This document shows, piece by piece, positions 28,030 to 43,583 of a DNA stretch of 64,000 bases. Below the pieces are notes generated by a model. It did not search any database. It had not been told where the DNA came from and saw only the letters and a program-made list of their open reading frames with translations. Every line of letters begins with the position of its first letter. The stretch's first letter is position 1. The translations under genes were made by a program, and so were the position numbers. Source of the DNA: Candidatus Poribacteria bacterium (GTDB taxonomy: Bacteria; Poribacteria; WGA-4E; WGA-3G); contig CBDANF010000003.1 of NCBI GenBank assembly GCA_965197475.1, positions 4,032,001 to 4,096,000 of the forward strand, in the 5' to 3' direction.

Positions 28030-28893
28030 ATGTCTAAACACCGTCTCTATTATGGGGATAATCTCACAATTCTTCAGAAGTATGTCTCTGATGAGAGTAT
28101 TAATCTAATATATATTGATCCGCCGTTCAACACAGGAAAATACCAATTGCGCACTGAATTGCAGGTTGAACAGGATGATCAAGGTGATCGTATCGGTTTC
28201 CAAGGCAAGACATACAGAACCTATAAAGGCAAAACAAGACACTACTCCGATAAGTTCGAGAGTTCGGATGTCTACTTGCAGTTTTTACGTCCCCGTTTTG
28301 AAGAGGCATACCGGGTAATGCATCCTTATGGAAGTTTTTTTCTGCATATTGATTACCGGGAGGTGCATTACTGTAAAATAATACTTGATGAGATATTTGG
28401 ACGCGACTCCTTTGTCAATGAAATTATTTGGGCTTACGATTACGGTGGACGGTCCAAATCGCGATGGCCCGCCAAGCACGATAATATCCTGTGGTACGCT
28501 AAAACCCCGAAACGTTATACCTTCAATTTTGATGAGATGGATAGGATACCTTATATGGCACCCGGTTTAGTCGGCAAAGAGAAGGCAGCGCGAGGTAAAA
28601 CACCTACCGATGTCTGGTGGCATACAATTGTCAGCACTAATGGACAAGAAAAAACCGGCTATCCGACACAAAAACCGCTCGGAATTCTTAACCGTATTGT
28701 CAAAGTGCATTCATCCTCCGGAGACACACTTATGGATTTTTTTGCTGGCAGCGGATCATTCGGAGAAGCTGCAGCACTACACAATCGTTCCTCGATTCTA
28801 ATTGATAACAATATCCCCGCAATCAGGAGCATTATGAGTCGGTTGGCAATTTTTGGCGTTGAACTTGTCAACGCTAATTACGAGATGTTGTAG
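28030..28893 (+). CDS. Site-specific DNA methyltransferase (N6A/N4C, beta class), orphan
   Basis: YIDPPF catalytic motif precedes YPTQKP and DFFAGSGS SAM-binding motif. Confidence 0.88.
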   Translation: MSKHRLYYGDNLTILQKYVSDESINLIYIDPPFNTGKYQLRTELQVEQDDQGDRIGFQGKTYRTYKGKTRHYSDKFESSDVYLQFLRPRFEEAYRVMHPYGSFFLHIDYREVHYCKIILDEIFGRDSFVNEIIWAYDYGGRSKSRWPAKHDNILWYAKTPKRYTFNFDEMDRIPYMAPGLVGKEKAARGKTPTDVWWHTIVSTNGQEKTGYPTQKPLGILNRIVKVHSSSGDTLMDFFAGSGSFGEAAALHNRSSILIDNNIPAIRSIMSRLAIFGVELVNANYEML

Positions 28894-30681: not shown

Positions 30682-32319
30682 ATGTTAAGAAATATTAAGA
30701 TACTGCTAAAAGCAGATTGCCATGCATGGTTGAACAGTTTTAAACACGATAGACAAGCATGGCGAAAAAGCGTTTTGAAGGGTATCGGATACCTCATTTT
30801 CATCGTTGCATTGTCGGTATTAGGCTATACTCTTTTCTCGCATCTGCGGTTCACAGACGCACCCCCGCAACTTCTTTTGAGTGTGATTAACGGTTTCATG
30901 CTGTTCGGGATTATTATTGTGATGAAGGAATTGATGGAAAGTTCTTTGAAAATACTATATGAGGCACCGGACACACCACTTTTACACGCAGCACCGATTC
31001 AACCTATCGCAATCTTCGGATATAAATTTATCCATATTACTGCCACCCGATTTCTGAGTATACTCTGTTTTTTGGGGCCACCGTGGGTAGTTTTCGGTGT
31101 GATATATGAATTGCCGTGGCATTTTTATGCAGTGTTATTTCCTGTGTCCGTGTGCCTTCTTATCATGATTGCGAGTTATGTTACCATCAGCATGATGGTG
31201 ATTGCCCGATTCTTTTCATCCGCAGGTCTTCTCACAACACTTAAGATACTCGGCACCGTAATAGGCGTGACGGTAGGTTTCCTACTATCCTTCACCTTAT
31301 TTTCTAGGGGTGGGCTATTACCGATAAAACGTGTTCTGCTTGATTGGGCTTCCGCAAGAACAGCAGATACCGTCGCCACGTGGTATCCACACGAATGGAT
31401 AGGGAAACTGCTGTTGAGTTGGGGAACTGAATCTACGGTATGGGTGCGGTTGCGATGGGCACTTGGTGGGTTCGCGATAAGTCTTATCTCAGCGGGGTTT
31501 GCAACACTCACAGCACAATGGATATACCAACGCGGATGGGAAAATATCCGCCAATTGAAATCCAAGCGTAAGTCCGTACGAACGAACGGAAATGCTGCCG
31601 CTTCAGACCTGAGCCGAATTGTTGTTACTTTCGGACGCGGCAAGATACAATCCATGATGTTGAAAGATTTTCTAATCTTCATCAGACATAGTGGACGGGT
31701 GATTGCGATCATCATGCTCACGTTCTTTTTGGCAGTTCACATCGGTTTTTTGCTTGTAGATGGCAGCGGCGCAGATGAAAACGCAGCCGGAATTCTCACT
31801 GTTCAGGTGCTACTTTATAGTTTGCTCATTACATTCGGTATTAGTTGCAACGGTCTTCGCGATGAAGCGAAAACATGGTGGATGTTGAAATCCGCACCCG
31901 TTACACCTAAACTGATATTCACAAGTAAGTTTTTTACAGCCTTGCTATGTGCGTTGGTCTACGCCGAGTTCTGGTCATTAATTGCTATTTACCTGCTCCG
32001 AATTCCGGCAAACAATTGGGTGCTGGTGCTTCTCACACCGTTCATAACGCTTCCTGCAGGTTGCGCATTAAACACAACAATCGGCACATTACCTTGGATG
32101 GCAGAACTGACACATCAACCGAAACCGATTTTACGAGTTTTAACCTTCACCGTGACACTTATTATTGATGTGGCATTCGTCATCGTCCCTATAATAGCAT
32201 GGTATACAAAACACATTGTGCTATTTTTCGTAATGCTGATTCTACTCGCGGGCGCGTTCGTAATGTCTTATAGATACGGCATAGGTAATCTTCGCAAGTT
32301 GTTAGTTGCGCAACATTAG
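30682..32319 (+). CDS. Putative ABC transporter permease
   Basis: Many TM helices in two halves with LHAAPI and LKSAPV...KF motifs; follows the ATPase. Confidence 0.75.
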   Translation: MLRNIKILLKADCHAWLNSFKHDRQAWRKSVLKGIGYLIFIVALSVLGYTLFSHLRFTDAPPQLLLSVINGFMLFGIIIVMKELMESSLKILYEAPDTPLLHAAPIQPIAIFGYKFIHITATRFLSILCFLGPPWVVFGVIYELPWHFYAVLFPVSVCLLIMIASYVTISMMVIARFFSSAGLLTTLKILGTVIGVTVGFLLSFTLFSRGGLLPIKRVLLDWASARTADTVATWYPHEWIGKLLLSWGTESTVWVRLRWALGGFAISLISAGFATLTAQWIYQRGWENIRQLKSKRKSVRTNGNAAASDLSRIVVTFGRGKIQSMMLKDFLIFIRHSGRVIAIIMLTFFLAVHIGFLLVDGSGADENAAGILTVQVLLYSLLITFGISCNGLRDEAKTWWMLKSAPVTPKLIFTSKFFTALLCALVYAEFWSLIAIYLLRIPANNWVLVLLTPFITLPAGCALNTTIGTLPWMAELTHQPKPILRVLTFTVTLIIDVAFVIVPIIAWYTKHIVLFFVMLILLAGAFVMSYRYGIGNLRKLLVAQH

Positions 32320-32584
32320 AAATCAAATTATGCACCCAATGCCATCTAATATTGTGTCTTTAAAATTATGGAAGGTAATTATATACTGCAACTTGTTATA
32401 AAGGCATATTCAAGTGATGACAGATGTGTCTATAGTGCATGTGATGCGATAACCGAGTGAAATAAAAGATCATCACAAATCGTTTAATCTGCTACAATGG
32501 TAAAATCAGAATTGAAGATGCTCAACGCTACTTATAGCGTGGACCGCGCGCCGCAAACTATTTTGATAATCGGGATGAAGAGTC

Positions 32585-34564
32585 ATGGTAACTTATGAAC
32601 AATGGAACAAAGCAATCATTTCCTACTTTTTTGAAGATCGTGAACCTGGGGAAAAAGTCTTTTTACACACAACCTCTGATACACTGCCCGAAATCGCTAA
32701 ACATGCAGGTTTCGATGTAGATGATCCCGAAGAAAGTTTGAAAGAGGTTGTCAGAAAAAAAGTTGTTTTAAATAGAGTTATTCCTACCGATGAGATTTGG
32801 CTACGAAGAATTTCTCCAGCAGAAAAAGATCCCCCACATGTTGCTTTCCTTGCACTTTGTGTACTTGCGGCAAGTAGGATGGAAACCTCTGAAGAAGCAT
32901 TTAATACCAATTACTATATTCAGTTAAATAAACTTCTGTTTAACAAACCCAATAAAGGAAAACCAAAAGGACTCAAGACTAAGGGTTGGGAAGAATTTTG
33001 GATATACCTCAAAGATTGGGTGGAAGATAAGTATGATGTAAAACTCTACCTCACACAAGGTCATCCAAGATATGTTTGGTATCCGATTTCGCAATGCCTG
33101 ATTAGCAAACATGACGAACATATTCTTCAAGCTATCTTCAAGGAAATGGATCTAAAGCAAGGTGCTTACCTTGACGAATCACAACTTCTGGATATAATTC
33201 GTTCATGTCAATCATTTACAAACCTATCATTGAAAATTAAACGACCCATTATGGATCAGAAGACAGCGGAAATTCGACTGATATTAGATCAAATTCAATT
33301 ACTTTTAATAAACTGGGACGGGGAAGTTTGGGAGAAGATACGACGCGGCACAACAAGACTAAGTTCTACATCAATTAGTGTCCAACTGTTCGATATGCCT
33401 GATGAAATTGATGAGGTTTGTTATTGGTTCAGACGTAGGCAAAAAAGCCAAATTACTTTCAAAGAAAACGCTCTCCATATTAAAACTCTACAATCACTCA
33501 ATGAGCAGTGGTTCAAACCAATTGCTGTGCGTGCTGAGCACTTGTCATTTCAGATATTACGAAAAGGTATTGAACTAAATACGACTGATGCAAATCCATT
33601 TACTTATCGGATAAAATCTTCTGATATATGGGTTTTCCGATGGGATGAAGATCTTGCTGACGGTTGGCTAAGCACAAACAACCTATTGTTACATGAAGAC
33701 CACCTTATCGTCTATTGTAAGCAATTAGAATGGGAAGTTACATCATTTTTAGAACAGGTTTGCGACAAAATATCTGCATCGAAACCAATTCGTATCGGAG
33801 GTAAAGGAACAGGTTGGCAATACATCAAGGCAAAACCAACCCGTTTATCTGATTCTTCTCTCTATGGATTTCGGATCACAACATCAGAAACAGATCAAAT
33901 TAAATTTGTGGGCGGATTGCTCTTAGGTGGGCAAAGAAACTCGTATATTGATTTCTGTCTCCCCACCATTGTTATTCCCAATCTTATTTCAGATTCCGAT
34001 GAGCCGTTATATATGAATGAACAACCCGTTGATATTCCAAGTAATCGAAAAATTGAACTTCCAGATAAGCCTGATACGGATAAATATCAGCTTTCATATC
34101 TTGACTGTCTTCAAACCACATTGCACATAATTACACCAAAACGTCCGGAAATGCCCCAAGAGAAAGTGCATACAACCGTACTATCCAAAAACAGAGATAC
34201 TATTCCCACTTATTCTAAAGATACAATAGCCGAAATTACGGAGAAATCTGGAGTGTGGCTCGCCGGTGCAAAGTTGTTCGGGACAGACATCCCCGATACG
34301 ACATGGGAGGACGTGGTTGAAGTTCCAATAGAACCACTGCCCCACAAATATGACAAAGTAGCACCTGCCCAACTCATTTCATCAGTCCTAAAATTGGCAA
34401 TTGAACTCAAAAACAACGGTTCATCAATCCCGGAACGGTTTGACGAAACAATCCAATATTTAGATGAGAACGTTGCTATGCAATCCCTTGTTCAGAAAAA
34501 ATTACAGCAATACAAAGAAAAAGCCCTATCGTATGATGATCTCCGTAAACGAGGAGGTGAGTAG
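32585..34564 (+). CDS. Defence-associated protein resembling the N-terminal part of Druantia type III DruH
   Basis: YEQWNKAIISYFF, PPHVAFLALCVLAAS, NYYIQL, YVWYPISQCLIS; first gene of the helicase operon. Family call is from recall, not a search. Confidence 0.5.
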   Translation: MVTYEQWNKAIISYFFEDREPGEKVFLHTTSDTLPEIAKHAGFDVDDPEESLKEVVRKKVVLNRVIPTDEIWLRRISPAEKDPPHVAFLALCVLAASRMETSEEAFNTNYYIQLNKLLFNKPNKGKPKGLKTKGWEEFWIYLKDWVEDKYDVKLYLTQGHPRYVWYPISQCLISKHDEHILQAIFKEMDLKQGAYLDESQLLDIIRSCQSFTNLSLKIKRPIMDQKTAEIRLILDQIQLLLINWDGEVWEKIRRGTTRLSSTSISVQLFDMPDEIDEVCYWFRRRQKSQITFKENALHIKTLQSLNEQWFKPIAVRAEHLSFQILRKGIELNTTDANPFTYRIKSSDIWVFRWDEDLADGWLSTNNLLLHEDHLIVYCKQLEWEVTSFLEQVCDKISASKPIRIGGKGTGWQYIKAKPTRLSDSSLYGFRITTSETDQIKFVGGLLLGGQRNSYIDFCLPTIVIPNLISDSDEPLYMNEQPVDIPSNRKIELPDKPDTDKYQLSYLDCLQTTLHIITPKRPEMPQEKVHTTVLSKNRDTIPTYSKDTIAEITEKSGVWLAGAKLFGTDIPDTTWEDVVEVPIEPLPHKYDKVAPAQLISSVLKLAIELKNNGSSIPERFDETIQYLDENVAMQSLVQKKLQQYKEKALSYDDLRKRGGE

Positions 34565-34566
34565 CC

Positions 34567-36537
34567 TTGCAAGCAAAACCTTATCCAGAAGCAAAGCGAA
34601 GAATTTTAATTGAACGGAGTGTAGAAGATTTTGTTGCCTTCTTAGAAGAAGTAACAGAAAGTCAAGGGCAGACCTTTATTCGAAATCAATTACTTCCCCG
34701 AACCGTTACAGGATTCCGACCTGGGCATGCTCCACTGACTCTGACGGTTCCAAAGTTGATTTCCAATCTAAAAGATGAACAAGAACTTACTAATCCTAAT
34801 TCTACCGTTTGGAATTTATTCAATAACACTTGGAGGTATTGGGTTGGATCTCACCAAGCACTAAATGACATTCTACTTGAGTTTGACAACAACGCAGATT
34901 TTGATGAAAACCATATCTGTATTACACCTCCGAACAGTGAACTTGATATACAATGTTTCGAAATCTTGCTGGAAGCAAGTCTCAACAATCAGATTGATCA
35001 GGAGACAATACGACGCTTTTACGAATATGGTCATTTTAACGAAGATGAACGGATAGAAGAATTAATTGATAAGGCACAACCTCAAGAGAAGATTGAACGG
35101 AAACAACAAATAGAACAACTACCCAAACATGTTGAAAGACTTCGCCAAGAAATTGAAGAACTTCGCACCCAAATTTCTAACTTAGACCTTATAAGTGAAC
35201 TACAACAAGCATTAGATCAACGAGTTGCAGAAGTCCAACAGTCTTTTGAAGATCAGTTAACACAGTTAAATGTTTCTGAAAATGTTAGTCGATTAAAACA
35301 ATTGATTGAATCTCTCAAATCTCAGATTGGTGAAGTTGAGACATCTCTGAAAACTCGGATTGATGCACTTGAGAATTCACAAAATGACTTCGTTAATCAC
35401 CTTAAGGAGACAACCGCGCAACTTAAACAGCAAATCCAAAACATCAACCAATCTATTGCAGAACGGCTTGGTAGCATGGACAGTGCTATTGCTGAAATTA
35501 AATCTATAGTAGAGGAACAAAATCAAACGAAGGTTCAACGAATCGCACGTCAAGCTATAGAGATCGGGAGACATTATGAATCCAAATTAACCTCGGAAAC
35601 TGGAAGTTACAGCAATGAAGAGGAGTATCTGGAAAAAATGTCCATTTTCCAGCAAAAGTTTGGTTTAACGAATTTGGAAGAAAAGGACGATTCCGAAGAA
35701 ATAGCTGCAGCTGTTCATATTGCTATGAAAGCCTTTCCTGCACTTGAGATTACCGATGACAGATTAATCAAAATTTGGCAGCTGATATGCGGTGATCATT
35801 TACATATCACAAAAATCAATGTGGAAATGGGATGGCTTGGATCGCAGGATTGGTTTCCTGGTCTCTTTTCCGAAGTATGTTTTGATAAACGTCTTGAAAA
35901 AATAGAGCTTGCTATCTCAATTCAGGAAATGCTTAAGTTAGGTGATATGCCTTGGGCAATCCATCTAAACAACTGTGATAAATCGTATCCAGATTCTTAT
36001 TTCCCATCTTTCCTTGATTGGATCAAAAAGACTTGCGATGATGGCATGAAGGTGTTTCTCACCCGTTGTTCAGGAACTAATCGTTGCATAACAAGTGAAG
36101 ACTTTTATGAAAGAGTCGCTCGTTTACCCAAACCAAACGAACAAGCACCAATTAATGTGCGACATTTGGAAGATCTACATGTTATTACTCGGAGTAAATG
36201 GGTGTCTTGGTGTCATCCGGATACGAGTGCAAGTGTGAGTTTTGAAAAGCAGTTTGATTTGCTTAAGAAACTCCAGACGATAATCGAAAATATGGAAGTA
36301 CAACTTCCGGAGAAAATTATTCCCGAAATTTCCCATTTTCTACAACTTTCACACAACATCTTAACGCCTACGCTTGCACTTGATTGGGCATTAACCTTAC
36401 GTCTTTTGCCATGGATTGAAAAACAAACTGAGATCGTTGATAGCATTTACAGTAGAGACAATTGGGAAGAATGGGAATTACCACATTTCTACAAAGGTTT
36501 ACAAAAGGCTCGGGAGAAAAATAATGAATCTAACTGA
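34567..36537 (+). CDS. Coiled-coil protein with a degenerate McrB-like AAA+ C-terminal domain
   Basis: About 160-aa heptad region, then INVEMGWLGSQDWF, AIHLNNCDKSYPDSYFPSFL, SEDFYERV and ALDWALTLRLLPWI in McrB-family motif order. No intact Walker A or B. TTG start after GGAGGTG. Confidence 0.5.
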   Translation: MQAKPYPEAKRRILIERSVEDFVAFLEEVTESQGQTFIRNQLLPRTVTGFRPGHAPLTLTVPKLISNLKDEQELTNPNSTVWNLFNNTWRYWVGSHQALNDILLEFDNNADFDENHICITPPNSELDIQCFEILLEASLNNQIDQETIRRFYEYGHFNEDERIEELIDKAQPQEKIERKQQIEQLPKHVERLRQEIEELRTQISNLDLISELQQALDQRVAEVQQSFEDQLTQLNVSENVSRLKQLIESLKSQIGEVETSLKTRIDALENSQNDFVNHLKETTAQLKQQIQNINQSIAERLGSMDSAIAEIKSIVEEQNQTKVQRIARQAIEIGRHYESKLTSETGSYSNEEEYLEKMSIFQQKFGLTNLEEKDDSEEIAAAVHIAMKAFPALEITDDRLIKIWQLICGDHLHITKINVEMGWLGSQDWFPGLFSEVCFDKRLEKIELAISIQEMLKLGDMPWAIHLNNCDKSYPDSYFPSFLDWIKKTCDDGMKVFLTRCSGTNRCITSEDFYERVARLPKPNEQAPINVRHLEDLHVITRSKWVSWCHPDTSASVSFEKQFDLLKKLQTIIENMEVQLPEKIIPEISHFLQLSHNILTPTLALDWALTLRLLPWIEKQTEIVDSIYSRDNWEEWELPHFYKGLQKAREKNNESN

Positions 36538-37444
36538 AATTAATGTCTTTGATAAACTACTTTATTATTTATCACATGAAGGTGAAGTAAGTTGGACAAA
36601 ATTCAAGGATGCAATTGATAGATTGACCGGTGATCAACGACGTTTTGAATATATCTCTACTTACCTAAAATATCTTGCGAGATTGGGACATCTTGATTTC
36701 GACCCTATGCAATTATCACATGTTACAATTGGTCCTACCGTTCTTTTAGAAACAGCAGTAAAAAATAGATATGTTCTTGTAGGAAGTAGAACCCCTGCCT
36801 TACTTAAGGAAGTAGAAAAATGTGTTTCCGACATTGGTGGGAAACTTCGCTCAGAATCGAATAAAAATGCGCCAGCAACGATTATTATCAGCGATATTGA
36901 TGAAACGCCTTTCACGGAAATCGAAAATTTAGACATTCATATCAGCCTCGAATTTTCCGCGAAATTGTCACAAATACTACCAAAACCAAAACGCTCCAGT
37001 TTCCCTACGAGTGATACACTGCTTTCTGAATCTCGAAAAAAGTTTAATCACAAAACCTTGAAATTTGAACCTTTTAACCAACGACAACGAGGTAATGGAC
37101 TCTATGAAATTCCACAATTCGGTCGCAATATTTACATCTTAAAATCTGGTGATGATCAAAGAAGAGTGCCACGCGATTGGGGCACATGGCTTGCACTTTC
37201 CGATGCCGGTAAAACAACGGGATTTGTATATTATCGGAAAAAAGATTATAAATGGTTTGTAAAGTCTCCGTTGCAGATACCACTAATTTTAGACCGATGT
37301 GTAACACTCTGTTATGGTTCCCCACCAAAATCTGTATTATCTACAAAAAAGGATAAATTTTATCGTTATTCTCATGTTCACAAAGGTATTGCATATCAAT
37401 TAACCAAATCACTATATCAAAACTGGGAGAAAGTTGATGTCTGA
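36524..37444 (+). CDS. Defence-associated protein resembling the C-terminal part of DruH
   Basis: LLYYLSHEGEVSWTKFKDAI...LARLGHLDFD...LVGSRTP. ATG at 36524 after GGAG; overlaps both neighbours. Confidence 0.5.
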   Translation: MNLTEINVFDKLLYYLSHEGEVSWTKFKDAIDRLTGDQRRFEYISTYLKYLARLGHLDFDPMQLSHVTIGPTVLLETAVKNRYVLVGSRTPALLKEVEKCVSDIGGKLRSESNKNAPATIIISDIDETPFTEIENLDIHISLEFSAKLSQILPKPKRSSFPTSDTLLSESRKKFNHKTLKFEPFNQRQRGNGLYEIPQFGRNIYILKSGDDQRRVPRDWGTWLALSDAGKTTGFVYYRKKDYKWFVKSPLQIPLILDRCVTLCYGSPPKSVLSTKKDKFYRYSHVHKGIAYQLTKSLYQNWEKVDV

Positions 37445-40400
37445 TCCTATAAAAACCGATCCTTTTAAAACATACAAACTGCTTTGCGATTCTTACATTC
37501 GTTACATACAAACCATTATGGGTTTCAATAGCGAGAAGTTAGAAGAAGAAAGAGACGAGTTATTACGCAAAAATGGTTTGCTTTTTCAGGATCCTCGTTT
37601 TGAACCAATATTTCCATATCCTTCCTCAAAAAGAACATTAACGGAATTGTGTGATGATCTAAAACTCACTTCTGAACTTGGTGAATTTCTCGCTACTGGA
37701 GGCGAAGAAGGGCTTGCCCCAAAAGATCGCCATCTCTATGAACATCAGGCAGATGCAATTAAAGCATCCGTTTTTGATGGAGAGGATGTCGTTGTTACAA
37801 CTGGCACAGGTTCAGGTAAAACAGAATGCTTTTTACTGCCAATCTTCAGCTATCTTATCAAAGAATCACGAGCTTGGACGAGTTATGGAAAGCGAAATAT
37901 AGACCATCCATGGTGGCGTACTCATGAACGATCAGTAGGAACTCGTATTCCACAACGTAAAGGAGAAACCCGACCCGCTGCTATCCGAGCGTTGATTATG
38001 TACCCGCTCAATGCTCTTGTTGAAGACCAGCTGATGCGGCTACGTCGCGCTTGTGATAGTCCAAAAGCACGCCAATGGCTAAACGATAAACGCGGTAATA
38101 ACCGATTTTACTTCGGACGATATAACAGTTTGACACCAGTGTCAGGCGCGGAAAACAGTAATAGTTTGAGAAGACTCCGAACTAAACTTGATGATCTACG
38201 TAAGCAATTTGAAAAAGTAAAAGATTCACCAAAAAAACGCTATTATTTTCCTTCAACCGATGTTGATACGGCTGAAATGTGGACCCGTTGGGACATGCAA
38301 AACCGCCCCCCTGATATATTAATCACAAACTATTCGATGTTGAACATTATGCTCACACGAGATTTGGAACTGCCAATATTTGAAGAAACCAAAAAATGGC
38401 TGGAACAGCCAGATAGCATTTTTCATCTCGTTGTTGATGAACTACATTCCTACAGAGGCACATCTGGTTCAGAAGTCGCGTTTTTACTTCGGACGCTTTT
38501 TAATAGACTCGGTCTTGACCCCGACTCGCCAAAGTTACGTATCATTGCTTCAAGTGCATCACTTGAAGGGAATAAAGAGCGCGTAAAAGATGAAGGTAGT
38601 GAAGAAGATGAAGCGCGTAAATACCTCCGTCAGTTTTTTGCACGTGGGAAAAGATTTAATATTATTGGTTCGCCTCCACACAGTGAAAAAAGAACTGAAC
38701 TTCGGGAATGCCTAAAACACGCAAAGCATTTTGAAGTATTTAATCGTAATGCTGATTCTACTGAATTGGATAAGATTCCAAAAGATCGCATCAAATCTGC
38801 TGTAGCGCAGCTTTGCTACTGTAAGGGTAAGCTGCACGCCTCAACGGTTGAAGACATGCTTGATGCTGCAAACAAGGTCGCTTCAACACCAATTACCGAA
38901 GAAACAATTCAGGGCTTAATTCGCTATCTAATTCAGCAAAAAGATTCAAAGAAAAATCAAGCATTATTGCCGCTACGCGTACATTACTTTTTCAAAAACT
39001 ATGAAGGACTATGGGCATGTAGCAATCCAAAGTGTCAAGGAGAACACGAAGATGCTACCATCGGAAAACTATTCGCAAATAGACGCGTTTTGTGTGATCA
39101 ATGTGGCTCACGAGTCTTAGAACTGTTAAACTGTGAAACCTGTGGAGATCTCTTTCTGGGAGGATATAAACAGCAGATATCCGAAAAGCCACCAAGTTGG
39201 TACCTAAGCGGGGATTATCAAGAATTAACAAGTTTGCCTGAAAAAGGCGTTAGGGATAGAAACTATGAAACTTATGCTATCTTCTGGCAGAGAAAACAAA
39301 TACCTGAACCAGATAGATCGTGGGAAAAACATGGTATTAAAAGACGGTGGGCACCAGGGCATTTCAAGCATGCCGAAGGAAAACTCACACGCAATTCTGT
39401 GAATTACAACGGTTATTTTTATAACATTGACAAGCCAGAGGATTGGTGTTCAGAAATTCCAAAATATTGCCCCAATTGTGGTGACGCGTGGGATCACACA
39501 AACAAGCCAAAACCAATCAGCGGGAAAGAGGAAACCTATTCACCACTCCATGATATGGGTACAGGTTTGCAGAAGATTATCCAAATACTTACACAAACTT
39601 TGCAAGCGACCGTTAAAGAACAATCCGATCGAAAAACTATTATCTTCTCTGATAGTCGACAAGATGCAGCGAAATATGCTGTTGGGCTACAATGGGCACA
39701 CTATCGAGATATGATTAGACTCATCGTTATTGATACGATGAAAAAACAGACAGAAGAATCTGATTTTACACTACTTCGTGATTTCCAAAATGGACGCATG
39801 ACTCGCGAAGAAGCACGCGATCCAATTAATCGCCTTATCGCTAATTTTCCAGACGAACAATCTATATTTTGGGATATTTACGATGGCAAATCTTTAACAG
39901 AAGATCAAAAAAGTCAATTAATTGCACTTGAGTGTAACTTTCCGTTTACCGTTCTTCAGGAAGAATGTTTTAAAGAATTTATTAACCACGGCATGAATCC
40001 CGGTGGCTACGGTCAAAAAGTTGATAGTTCTTATAACGGTGATAGTTGGTTGAACCTTTGTGATTGGGAACGCGATCCGGCTGTGTTACGCTCAAATAGA
40101 CAACTTGAACCTCACCATAAAACCCTTATAAGGGATATTGAGTCCGAATTTAAAAGAGTAATTGCAGAACGAATCCTGTTTGCAAGAAAAGATATGGGTT
40201 TAGAAGGATTAGGACTCGCATGGTGTGAACCTAAGATAAATCCTGATAAGTGGAGACTTAATAACGTTAATCCTACAGAAATAATGGCTTCAGTTACACG
40301 TATTCTTGGTGAAAGAAAGCGCACCAATATAAATCCCTTTCTTTTTCTTGAGATGGATATGCCAAAGTTTGTCGAAGAATATCTCGTGAAATCGGCAACT

Positions 40401-42881
40401 CCATTAGAGTGTTCTGTCGATGAACTTATAAAAACAATTGGCGAACAGATTGAAGCATCCAGCACCTTTGATGGCTATCTCATACGTGTAGAAGATTTGA
40501 GTATTCGTTTATCTCAAAGCAACACAATCTATCGGTGTTTAAAGTGTAAACGAAAGCACCTTTACAATGCGGGTGGGATTTGCACAAACACGAAATGCCT
40601 TGGAGAATTAGAGGAAATTGATAAAAATTTGGATAAATTAGAACAGTACGGTGGGTACTATACCTACCAAGTTGATCCTAAGGAACTTGGTATTCAGCCT
40701 TACCGTTTTCATTGCGAAGAGTTAACTGCACAAACTGATTCTGAAGAACGACCTACCCGGCAACGGTGGTTTCAAGATGTAATACTTGATGATGAAAATA
40801 AGAAAACGGATGAAATCGACCTTCTCAGCGTAACAACAACTTTGGAAGCTGGGGTCGATATCGGGGCACTTTCAATTGTATTAATGGGGAATGTCCCACC
40901 ACAGCGGTTCAATTATCAACAGCGCGTTGGACGTGCAGGAAGACGCGGTGAACCGATAGCCTACTCCTTAACGCTTTGCCGCCTTAGAACCCATGACGAT
41001 CACTATTTTTCACATACAAATCAGATTACAAATGACGAAACACCGCAGCCATATCTGGATCTCCGGAGTCAGGACATCATTCGTCGGGTATTAGCAAAAG
41101 AAGTTTTATTTAACGCTTTCCCGCACTCCGACACTGAAAATGCTAATGAGAGAAACGTCCACGGTAATTTCGGAAAAGTTTCCAATTGGTCAACTAATCG
41201 TGAAAAACTATCCACATGGATCCAAACACACCAAGAAACGATACCAAAAATCGTTCAAGTGCTTGCAGCACAAACGGAATTAGATACTAAAAACGCAACA
41301 GATGAATTGACACATTGGGTCATCAACAAACTTGAAAATGAAATTAGCAACTGCATAGATAACCATCTATTCAAAGATGATGATTTAAGCCAGGCACTCG
41401 CGGAGTCGGGGCTGCTGCCGATGTTTGGGTTTCCAACAGGTATACGTTTATTGTATCATCAACAACCGCGTAGATCCAATTGGCCCCCGACATCTGGTGT
41501 TGTTGACAGAAACATTGACATCGCTATTAACCAATTTGCCCCGGGTGCTGAAACTGTCAAGGATAAAAAAATCCACACATCTATCGGCATAGTTTCTTAT
41601 ATACCAGATGGCAATACTATGGGAACAGAAAGGGATATTGGACGTGAAAAATCTATAGGGTTCTGTGAAAGTTGTAAAGCCGTTTTCACTGAATCTATTG
41701 AAAACAAAAAGAAATGTGGAATATGTACAGATAGCAAATTTAAGCTAATCCAAGGTATTGAACCCAAAGGTTTCCTGACCAATTTCAAGCCAGATGATGC
41801 TCATGAGAATTTTAACAGGGCACCACGAGCAACATATTCACGCCTTCCATCAGATGTGCCAGCAAAATTGACAACACAACATAATTTTAGGTCGGGAGTA
41901 GAGCGTAAACTAAAACTATTTTCTATTAATACTAACAATGAGGGGTTTTTCAAACTTCGTAAACAGAAAGATAGCAATGCTCTTGTTTCGGCTGAAGTCT
42001 GCAGTGAACTTGCCCAAAAAAGTGGAAGGCACGATTTCAATGAAGATGGACACCTTGAAGGGAAAACGCGAAAATTTGCATTTTATGCATCTACAACTAC
42101 TGATATTTTGTTAATTGAGGTTGACGAAATACCAGAAGGCACTTCAAATAAATTACAAGGAGAATACTGGCGTGCAGCCTCGTATTCCTTCGGTTTCCTG
42201 TTCCGTCAGTTTGCAGCGAAACAATTGGACGTGTCACCAAAGGAATTGCGGGTTGAAATTCGTCCCGTGATAGAAAACGGGATTCCTAAACAACAAATAT
42301 TCATCGCTGATGCATTAGCAAATGGTGCGGGTTACTGCCGTCATCTCGGTGAGACTGATGCTAAAGGAATACCTTTCCGATTAGTTCAATTACTTAAAGA
42401 TATGACTAACCCCGATGATGATTTTGCAGAACGACTGATTGCTCATAGCAAAGATTGTGATTCATCTTGCTACAACAGAGGGTGTATGCGTGATTACTCC
42501 AACATGCCTTATCATCCATTTCTGGATTGGCGATTAGGGCTTGATGTAGCACAACTTTGCCTGAACGAAAACTATCAGATGGACCTCCAAAAAGACTATT
42601 GGTCTACCCTCGTAGACCCAGTAAAAAAGAACCTGGAAAAACTTCCCCAAAGCCTTGAATATAAGGATTACAACGGTGTCCCTGTTTTTGAAGATCAAGA
42701 GCAGCAGCGAGCATTCATTTTACATCACCCATTGGCTGCAACTGGTGATGAGGCTACACTACATATCAAATCAACTGTGGTTGATATTAGAGAATCAAGA
42801 TTTAAGGTGGATTACATCAATATTTTTAATGCTATTCGAAGGGTAAGTGACGTAATGAATACGCTGAATAAGAAACCATGA
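37437..42881 (+). CDS. Large SF2 DEAD/DEAH helicase with Zn-finger inserts and a C-terminal DUF1998 domain (DruE-like)
   Basis: LYEHQ, TGTGSGKT, YPLNALVEDQ, PPDILITNYSML, DELH, FSDSRQDAA, TTTLEAGVDIG, NYQQRVGRAGRR, several CxxC pairs, DALANGAGY, CDSSCYNRGC...LDWRLG. Confidence 0.85.
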   Translation: MSDPIKTDPFKTYKLLCDSYIRYIQTIMGFNSEKLEEERDELLRKNGLLFQDPRFEPIFPYPSSKRTLTELCDDLKLTSELGEFLATGGEEGLAPKDRHLYEHQADAIKASVFDGEDVVVTTGTGSGKTECFLLPIFSYLIKESRAWTSYGKRNIDHPWWRTHERSVGTRIPQRKGETRPAAIRALIMYPLNALVEDQLMRLRRACDSPKARQWLNDKRGNNRFYFGRYNSLTPVSGAENSNSLRRLRTKLDDLRKQFEKVKDSPKKRYYFPSTDVDTAEMWTRWDMQNRPPDILITNYSMLNIMLTRDLELPIFEETKKWLEQPDSIFHLVVDELHSYRGTSGSEVAFLLRTLFNRLGLDPDSPKLRIIASSASLEGNKERVKDEGSEEDEARKYLRQFFARGKRFNIIGSPPHSEKRTELRECLKHAKHFEVFNRNADSTELDKIPKDRIKSAVAQLCYCKGKLHASTVEDMLDAANKVASTPITEETIQGLIRYLIQQKDSKKNQALLPLRVHYFFKNYEGLWACSNPKCQGEHEDATIGKLFANRRVLCDQCGSRVLELLNCETCGDLFLGGYKQQISEKPPSWYLSGDYQELTSLPEKGVRDRNYETYAIFWQRKQIPEPDRSWEKHGIKRRWAPGHFKHAEGKLTRNSVNYNGYFYNIDKPEDWCSEIPKYCPNCGDAWDHTNKPKPISGKEETYSPLHDMGTGLQKIIQILTQTLQATVKEQSDRKTIIFSDSRQDAAKYAVGLQWAHYRDMIRLIVIDTMKKQTEESDFTLLRDFQNGRMTREEARDPINRLIANFPDEQSIFWDIYDGKSLTEDQKSQLIALECNFPFTVLQEECFKEFINHGMNPGGYGQKVDSSYNGDSWLNLCDWERDPAVLRSNRQLEPHHKTLIRDIESEFKRVIAERILFARKDMGLEGLGLAWCEPKINPDKWRLNNVNPTEIMASVTRILGERKRTNINPFLFLEMDMPKFVEEYLVKSATPLECSVDELIKTIGEQIEASSTFDGYLIRVEDLSIRLSQSNTIYRCLKCKRKHLYNAGGICTNTKCLGELEEIDKNLDKLEQYGGYYTYQVDPKELGIQPYRFHCEELTAQTDSEERPTRQRWFQDVILDDENKKTDEIDLLSVTTTLEAGVDIGALSIVLMGNVPPQRFNYQQRVGRAGRRGEPIAYSLTLCRLRTHDDHYFSHTNQITNDETPQPYLDLRSQDIIRRVLAKEVLFNAFPHSDTENANERNVHGNFGKVSNWSTNREKLSTWIQTHQETIPKIVQVLAAQTELDTKNATDELTHWVINKLENEISNCIDNHLFKDDDLSQALAESGLLPMFGFPTGIRLLYHQQPRRSNWPPTSGVVDRNIDIAINQFAPGAETVKDKKIHTSIGIVSYIPDGNTMGTERDIGREKSIGFCESCKAVFTESIENKKKCGICTDSKFKLIQGIEPKGFLTNFKPDDAHENFNRAPRATYSRLPSDVPAKLTTQHNFRSGVERKLKLFSINTNNEGFFKLRKQKDSNALVSAEVCSELAQKSGRHDFNEDGHLEGKTRKFAFYASTTTDILLIEVDEIPEGTSNKLQGEYWRAASYSFGFLFRQFAAKQLDVSPKELRVEIRPVIENGIPKQQIFIADALANGAGYCRHLGETDAKGIPFRLVQLLKDMTNPDDDFAERLIAHSKDCDSSCYNRGCMRDYSNMPYHPFLDWRLGLDVAQLCLNENYQMDLQKDYWSTLVDPVKKNLEKLPQSLEYKDYNGVPVFEDQEQQRAFILHHPLAATGDEATLHIKSTVVDIRESRFKVDYINIFNAIRRVSDVMNTLNKKP

Positions 42882-42962
42882 TATGAAACTCCAACTCAAC
42901 ACGAGACTCTCTCTAAGATGTTTCAGATATTAGTAGTTTAAAAGTACATGAAAGAAGGGTAT

Positions 42963-43486: not shown

Positions 43487-43548
43487 CAAATCTAAAATAC
43501 CTGTACATTTTAGATTTGCATTGTTTGTAGTCGCGCAATTCATTGCGC
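43487..43548 (+). repeat. Perfect 12-bp hairpin followed by a GTAG-type REP
   Basis: CAAATCTAAAAT-8 nt-ATTTTAGATTTG at 43487-43518; GTAG-TC-GCGCAAT-TC-ATTGCGC from 43527. Confidence 0.6.
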
Positions 43549-43583
43549 CTCTTACATATCAGTGGTTTTGAAAAGGAGAAATT

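Follow-up and report, generated by a model that had tools for sequence, protein, structure and literature searches.

A probable Druantia type IV operon with a DruC-like gene between DruF and DruL in Candidatus Poribacteria

The locus and its insertion site

A stretch of 64,000 nucleotides from a Candidatus Poribacteria bacterium (assembly GCA_965197475.1, contig CBDANF010000003.1, positions 4,032,001 to 4,096,000 of the forward strand), called here the window, harbors four coupled open reading frames (ORFs) of 659, 656, 306 and 1814 amino acids, all on the + strand. Together with a leader and a short tail they form a block that is likely to be a horizontally acquired anti-phage operon of the Druantia family, belonging to the type IV/II branch and exhibiting the order DruF, DruC-like, DruL, DruE. 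A preliminary description of this DNA had already recognised the four ORFs, the lower GC content of the insert, the giant superfamily 2 (SF2) helicase at its end and the DruE-centred Druantia character of the whole, all of which are borne out by the analysis reported below. Its assignment of the operon to Druantia type III, with a split DruH, is weighed together with the ORFs concerned. The features of the block are collected in Table 1.

Table 1. Features of the inserted block (positions are those of the window)
Feature	Positions	Strand	Length and start	Assignment or remark
Inserted block	32332..42945	.	~10.6 kb	absent from the same site in relatives
Non-coding leader	32332..32584	+		presumed promoter region; no counterpart in empty sites
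ORF1 (DruF)	32585..34564	+	659 aa, ATG start	PADLOC DruF4 PDLC00052, E 1.2e-34
ORF2 (predicted divergent DruC-family protein)	34567..36537	+	656 aa, TTG start	PADLOC DruC1 PDLC00006, E 7.9e-17
ORF3 (DruL)	36524..37444	+	306 aa from ATG (342 aa from an upstream TTG)	PADLOC DruL4 PDLC00056, E 2.9e-23
ORF4 (DruE)	37437..42881	+	1814 aa	full-length PADLOC DruE4 match

The four genes follow each other very closely: ORF1 and ORF2 are separated by 2 nt, while ORF2 and ORF3 overlap by 14 nt and ORF3 and ORF4 by 8 nt. The GC content per 1-kb interval ranges from 0.36 to 0.42 within the block, as compared to 0.42-0.47 in the flanks, a drop that is real but modest. From the proximal to the distal end, the insert is composed of a 253-bp leader, the four genes and a tail of ~60 bp. 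It is flanked upstream by an ABC-transporter gene and downstream by a hexapeptide-transferase gene, which are adjacent to each other in 5/5 same-genus genomes devoid of the system. The block is a true insertion, because the flanking genes are close together in system-free genomes and the empty sites align around it. The spacing between the upstream ABC_tran_2 and the downstream GFO/IDH genes is 628-1115 bp in the five same-genus genomes without an ORF2 match and 11,265 bp in the window, and alignments of the empty sites of two of these relatives (G017 and G022) to the window end at 32312/32331 and restart at 42944/42946. Scans for promoters and terminators yielded sites no more frequent than in shuffled sequence, and this includes the promoter-like consensus matches found at 32339-32387.

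DruE, the helicase

ORF4 is matched over its full length by the PADLOC DruE4 model with 1634 bits, followed by the DruE2 models, nearly as high (1534 and 1481), by DruE1 (only 671) and finally by DruE3, which matches in pieces only (449, 340 and 299 bits). The type III affinity put forward in the preliminary description is contradicted by this ranking, in which DruE3 comes last of the four DruE types. Pfam analysis identifies DEAD and Helicase_C domains and, with 23.6 bits for a cut-off of 24.2, a near-threshold MZB (DUF1998) domain. The motifs DELH (motif II) and QRVGRAGR (motif VI) and six CxxC strings are present, and ORF4 is therefore predicted to be a YprA-like SF2 helicase with zinc modules and an MZB/DUF1998 domain, whose helicase motifs are intact. 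No nuclease domain is recognisable in ORF4. A candidate phospholipase D (PLD) motif of the HxKxxxxD form, HIKSTVVD at residue 1776, was rejected as a chance occurrence since even the nearest relative does not conserve it.

The genome from which the window is taken encodes a single DruE. A tree of 21 DruEs, obtained by a quick IQ-TREE run whose careful search is unfinished and in which long branches were flagged, gathers nine four-gene DruEs in one clade (support 100), sister to a Nostoc DruE (support 89). This clade lies inside a group that contains three-gene systems (support 81), apart from the clades of types II and I. On plasmids, DruE relatives were retrieved from 28 records, all of them below 60% identity, the best at 33.7%. 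To note, the DruE ORF of one related locus (L062, 6346-12777) is 2143 residues long, ~330 residues longer than the others, and extends to the limit of the retrieved sequence; it scores lower against the DruE of the window, and its extension exhibits no DruK match.

DruF and DruL, two parts of a protein fused elsewhere

ORF1 matches nine DruF4/DruF2 models of PADLOC through its first 400-500 residues, while the canonical type II DruF models PDLC00018, 19 and 22 give no match. No Pfam, NCBIfam or PDB sequence match was found for ORF1, nor any Pfam or NCBIfam match for ORF3, and a protein atlas search retrieved neither of the two. Besides DruL4, ORF3 matches positions 740-1027 of a 1030-position long DruF2 model (E 1.1e-12). 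This relationship was examined using as a reference a 1013-residue protein whose gene immediately precedes that of DruE on an Alisedimentitalea plasmid, which is recognised by the long DruF2 models at 1e-105 and whose residues 754-1004 match DruL4 (1.7e-11). Profile-profile comparison with hhalign aligns residues 3-450 of the ORF1 family with residues 5-466 of this fused DruF (probability 97.7%, E 2.4e-12), and the DruL family with its residues 720-1011 (probability 74.7%, E 2.6e-5, 277 columns). No alignment was obtained between the last 200 residues of ORF1 and residues 466-720 of the fused protein. ORF1 and ORF3 thus correspond to the N- and C-terminal parts of one protein that is found elsewhere fused as a long DruF of 1010-1030 residues (PADLOC DruF2 models PDLC00016 and PDLC00023), which provides a Rosetta-stone type of link between DruF and DruL.

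The preliminary description had proposed a split protein with ORF1 as one end and ORF3 as the other. This idea stands, but the protein is DruF and not DruH: none of ORF1, ORF2 and ORF3 is matched by a DruH model at E<=10, with the proviso that the HMMER filters may hide very weak matches. It follows that the partial DruH matches anticipated on ORF1 and ORF3 were not observed. The operon has the general shape of a type III system, large partners preceding a giant DruE, and two of its ORFs do represent two ends of a protein fused elsewhere. However, the fused counterpart is a DruF, the DruE3 models rank lowest, and no conserved PLD motif is present in ORF4, whereas the DruE of type III is reported to carry two PLD domains (PMC12458937; 10.64898/2026.05.12.724681). 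A type III-like system with a DruH split around an inserted gene is therefore hardly credible.

The best of five structure models of DruL displays a predicted local distance difference test (pLDDT) score of 84.5 and a predicted template modelling score of 0.79, the pLDDT of the four others being 56-62. Its residues 1-126 retrieve winged-helix proteins only (MarR-type regulators, cullin WHB, MukF; Z 5-6), while residues 127-306, a region barely tested by the structure search, give no fold match. DruL is thus modelled as an N-terminal winged helix followed by alpha/beta domains. Foldseek returned no PDB match at E<=0.001 for the DruL model, and PDB sequence searches with the DruL and DruF alignments yielded only coiled-coil or chance matches. 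A Walker-A-like string of ORF3, ALSDAGKT (residues 224-231), is modelled in a helix-loop-strand context; it was set aside as probably fortuitous, its G, K and T being outside the columns conserved at 90% or more.

ORF2, a divergent DruC-family protein

The DruC1 model PDLC00006 covers residues 8-337 of ORF2, and the other matches of this protein in PADLOC, Pfam and NCBIfam are coiled-coil noise, including that of DruG2 (E 0.033), which is restricted to the coiled-coil region. ORF2 is assigned to the DruC family of type I Druantia, as a divergent member, because its family aligns over 507 columns with an alignment of 22 DruC proteins (hhalign probability 100%, E 1.2e-45), which itself matches at 1e-81 the DruC of the canonical type I DruA-B-C-D-E operon of Ralstonia plasmid pUW163a. 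Relatives of ORF2 are numerous, many of them full-length and unnamed: 191 were obtained at E<=0.001 among 8000 scored candidates, and an exhaustive comparison of 1.84 billion representatives with HMMER returned 85, 49 and 16 at E<=0.001, <=1e-10 and <=1e-30, respectively. Among the 28 relatives scanned, 26 match DruC1, and distant ones (23-35% identity) do so over their full length at 1e-44 to 1e-66. A tblastn search of plasmids with ORF2 gave no match.

The ORF2 model has a mean pLDDT of 64 and is confident only at its two ends, a helical N-terminal domain (residues 1-200) and the final 100 residues; a coiled coil is clear. Residues 349-637, a low-confidence region of the model, were compared with known structures. 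The best large-domain match is the MoxR-like ATPase 2r44, with 216 residues aligned at a root-mean-square deviation of 4.4 and a Z score of 8.0 that lies at the limit of meaning stated for the structure-comparison tool, followed by RavA (3nbx, Z 7.3) and by MCM and ORC proteins (Z 6.1-6.4). These large-domain matches are AAA+ proteins only, and no McrB chain is found among the matches listed. Within the AAA+ proteins, MoxR, MCM and McrB are members of a single clade. Dynein, RFC, ORC, RavA and ClpC appear in the sub-threshold list of Foldseek. PDB sequence searches with the ORF2 and DruC alignments retrieved only coiled-coil or chance matches, and no GxxxxGK[ST] string occurs in ORF2. The protein thus combines a helical N-terminal domain, a coiled coil and a C-terminal domain that is probably AAA+-like and lacks Walker A, and a pseudo-ATPase is its likely description.

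Conservation of the four-gene order

The preliminary description had suggested looking for the same gene order in other genomes. Loci were sought with ORF2 and, independently of it, with the DruL4 model, and were completed with one genome-contig locus and two metagenome loci. The DruL4 model is present in 29/176 genomes of the phylum and in 0/14 control genomes. The order ORF1-ORF2-ORF3-ORF4 is observed in 10/10 loci of a first set and in 19/20 of a second one; with locus L051 being a duplicate of L009, this amounts to 28 of 29 distinct loci that keep DruF, DruC-like, DruL and DruE in this order, ORF2 included. Counted by genome, 28 others are DruL-positive, of which 27 were examined (G123, represented by a 2.3-kb contig only, was left out) and 26 contain an ORF2 homologue. 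The exception, G063 (locus L068), encodes a DruF of 794 residues, a DruL of 437 residues and a broken DruE, and has no ORF2 homologue.

The surroundings of the system do not share this constancy. None of seven flanking proteins of the window recurs beside the system in the other 30 loci, many of whose flanks extend over just 1-2 kb, which fits a mobile block landing in different contexts. In the window, the flanks encode PspA, two ABC components, the hexapeptide transferase, whose gene starts 66 bp after the end of DruE, and GFO/IDH oxidoreductases.

It could be argued that ORF2 is a passenger or an independent module lodged within a standard three-gene type IV operon and takes no part in it. 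Three-gene DruF-DruL-DruE systems without ORF2 do exist, and two relatives (L016 and L056) keep only the C-terminal half of the protein. Yet the position and the coupling of ORF2 are the same in 28 of the 29 loci across different genomic contexts, its junctions consist of a 2-nt gap and a 14-nt overlap, and the DruC family is a core component of type I, encoded directly upstream of DruD-DruE. A passenger role of ORF2 is thus very improbable.

Several individual loci display damage to one gene, and single-gene decay is frequent in this Druantia family. ORF1 is split into two ORFs in L012 (1972-3995) and L013 (2018-4043), and three further loci (L054, L063 and L065) have an interrupted or split ORF2. 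The short ORF2 versions of L016 (4001-5095) and L056 (4362-5477), 364-371 residues long, appear to result from a natural deletion of the N-terminal domain and the coiled coil, the remaining half still abutting DruF and DruL. DruE is cut by insertion sequence (IS) elements encoding DDE transposases in L058 (9725-10735, genome G065) and L060 (9146-9943, genome G086).

Parts of the window stretch are contained in sponge metagenomes. In one metatranscriptome run, contigs ~93% identical to parts of ORF2 and ORF4 (window positions 35850-36229, 37619-39160 and 41063-42873) were found; they derive from the copy of a relative and, as such libraries may carry DNA, they give a weak hint of transcription.

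DruK, a nuclease gene found in part of the relatives

A PD-(D/E)xK protein of 368-372 residues begins 2 nt after DruE in loci L019 (18374-19477) and L020 (18318-19433); it is matched by the PADLOC DruK models (E 1.7e-31 and 6.7e-28), with a weaker match to Cas4. With tblastn, DruK is detected directly after DruE in 13 of 28 four-gene loci (L011, L014, L017, L018, L019, L020, L054, L056, L057, L061, L063, L064 and L065). It was not found in the 15 others, four of which (L058, L060, L062 and L067) offer too little sequence past DruE to judge, the remaining 11 offering 1-2.7 kb. Distant DruK homologues follow DruE on Rubrobacter and Meiothermus plasmids.

This distribution raises the question of whether the functional unit is the five-gene form with DruK, the copy in the window being a decaying remnant that no longer defends its host. 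DruK is coupled to DruE in those 13 loci and was found neither in the window nor in its genome, and decay is common among relatives, as illustrated by the two IS-split DruEs and by the split or interrupted ORF1 and ORF2 of five loci. The four ORFs of the window, however, are intact and tightly coupled. Moreover, the 11 DruK-less loci with enough downstream sequence keep four full-length genes, the closest relatives (87% DruE identity) being among them, and the three-gene type IV loci on plasmids also have no nuclease gene beside DruE. That the window holds a mere remnant is therefore unlikely.

Relationship with the described Druantia types

Druantia type IV is defined as DruE, DruF and DruL without DruM and DruG, a set reported in 168 instances from 11 phyla (Payne et al. 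2021, PADLOC, PMC8565338). The window operon resembles it in that, for ORF1, ORF3 and ORF4, the DruF4, DruL4 and DruE4 models rank first or nearly first, that the three genes are co-localised in one coupled operon, that in the tree its DruE groups with those of three-gene type IV systems, and that none of the four proteins matches DruM, the DruG2 match being that coiled-coil noise described above. It differs by the presence of a fourth gene, of the DruC family, between DruF and DruL, and by the addition of DruK in many relatives. Three-gene examples are found on plasmids of Oscillatoria PCC 7112 and Deinococcus aquaticus, in the order DruF, DruL, DruE, and on Nostoc pC052_B, where a DruM-like methylase precedes DruF (664 residues), DruL (302 residues) and DruE. 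A DruC-like gene is absent from these three examples as well as from G063, and searching the complete Nostoc, Oscillatoria, Deinococcus and Agrobacterium plasmid records with the DruC profile gave no match.

Type I operons, such as those of Ralstonia pUW163a and P. putida pKF715A, encode DruA, DruB, DruC, DruD and DruE. They have the DruC family in common with the window operon, and in both cases DruC is located two genes before DruE with a gene for ~300 residues in between. Conversely, the four proteins of the window, to which the scan for DruA was confined, give no match to DruA, DruB or DruD, the DruE1 models score poorly, and the type I DruEs form a separate clade.

Type II is illustrated by Agrobacterium (pusense) pR76, with DruM, DruF2, DruG, DruE and Vsr. 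Its DruE models score nearly as high as those of type IV, and DruG is, like ORF2, a protein of ~700 residues with a central coiled coil. The window operon nevertheless has no cytosine methylase (DruM), and ORF2 is not detectably related to DruG. The form composed of a fused long DruF and DruE, as encoded by the Alisedimentitalea plasmid, is akin to the window operon in that the long DruF corresponds to ORF1 and ORF3 joined. As for type III, a DruE-family helicase with an MZB domain is common to both, while the similarity to DruE3 is the lowest of all types, and neither DruH nor PLD nuclease domains are found.

A preprint (Bell et al., PMC12458937) reads Druantia I and II as a 'Type IV CoCoNuT' and describes in them a CnuB homologue that is McrB-like but inactivated. 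The window operon is reminiscent of that proposal through its YprA-like helicase and its coiled-coil protein, which may resemble an inactivated AAA+/McrB-like NTPase. It differs from it in that the text of the preprint contains neither DruF nor DruL (0 occurrences) nor type IV Druantia, although its figures and supplementary tables may show such an architecture.

Taken by its DruE, DruF and DruL, the window system is assigned to type IV, and it shares DruC with type I. The suggestion of the preliminary description that the operon may represent an undescribed subtype has to be divided. All four proteins belong to catalogued families (DruF4, DruC1, DruL4 and DruE4), but the four-gene composition was not found in the literature text: no DruC-family gene inside a DruF-DruL-DruE operon was encountered there, although one may be displayed in the PADLOC supplement or in the figures or supplementary tables of PMC12458937. 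The operon is a conserved arrangement of catalogued parts that was not found described, and not a new kind of system.

Proposed mechanism and alternative views

The operon comprises no methylase and no recognisable nuclease. DruE is the probable motor: by homology with YprA/MrfA helicases and with the DruE studied in type III, it would be loaded onto phage DNA intermediates where these are single-stranded, to translocate along or unwind them. Such a loading on single-stranded DNA is reported for the type III DruE and for YprA/MrfA relatives (10.64898/2026.05.12.724681; PMC12458937). DruF, DruL and the DruC-like protein probably act together as a sensor or scaffold devoid of enzymatic activity, by which DruE is recruited or licensed and in which the DruC-like component would be a coiled-coil pseudo-ATPase akin to the inactivated McrB-like CnuB homologue. 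Where present, DruK would be the nuclease. The copy of the window may interfere with phage by helicase action alone, or hand the DNA over to a nuclease encoded elsewhere.

Several results weigh against this interpretation of the block. For Druantia types I, II and IV no published mechanism was found, and each step proposed above is therefore inferred; the literature yielded no experimental test of the catalogued type IV either. DruK was found neither in the window nor, by one protein query, in its genome, which is 92.7% complete, and given this the model lacks an effector. The pseudo-ATPase assignment depends on residues of which 340-550 are modelled with a pLDDT of 30-65 and on a Z score of borderline value, and Foldseek gave no PDB match at E<=0.001 for the ORF2 model. 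Concerning the affiliation, hhalign detects no similarity between DruF and DruB (probability 0.5%) or between DruL and DruD (0.2%), and the link with type I is therefore confined to DruC and DruE. The comparison of ORF2 with the canonical type II DruG of Agrobacterium is equally negative (0.5%). Finally, in a genome survey centred on this phylum, the four-gene loci all come from one phylum or from metagenomes, and the named homologues are Candidatus Poribacteria.

A bolder view, which can be entertained only tentatively, holds that DruF, DruC-like, DruL and DruE, with or without DruK, constitute a distinct unnamed subtype linking type I with types II and IV. The DruC-like pseudo-ATPase may then be an ancestral core subunit lost by the three-gene type IV systems, and DruF and DruL may be the two halves of one sensor that assembles around it. 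The Cas4-like DruK may in turn be a detachable effector, the window copy defending its host by the helicase alone or with a host nuclease. The assignment to a horizontally acquired operon of the type IV/II branch remains the preferred interpretation.

Other features of the window

An N6/N4 DNA methylase gene (28030-28893; Pfam N6_N4_Mtase, E 1.3e-43) is located 3.7 kb upstream, outside the insert, with PspA and two ABC genes in between. Downstream of the block, the intergenic region between the hexapeptide transferase and GFO/IDH genes harbors a 23-nt palindromic hairpin repeat (43527-43549, within 43522-43557). The genome contains 46 copies of it at up to 2 mismatches (24 forward and 22 reverse, as compared to 0 for the reversed control), and sponge metagenome contigs contain it at very high depth. 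In appearance it is a dispersed repeat resembling repetitive extragenic palindromic (REP) sequences.

Significance for the Druantia family

Druantia systems are widespread, and a mechanism has been proposed for type III only, types I, II and IV being made of proteins without known domains. The poribacterial lineage offers a natural dissection of these proteins: DruF and DruL are separate here and fused elsewhere, and a DruC-family subunit is held in common with type I. A fourth component, conserved in at least one phylum, is missing from the three-gene definition published for type IV. With DruK present in about half of the relatives, these loci form a convenient set for asking which parts of the system sense, which scaffold and which kill.

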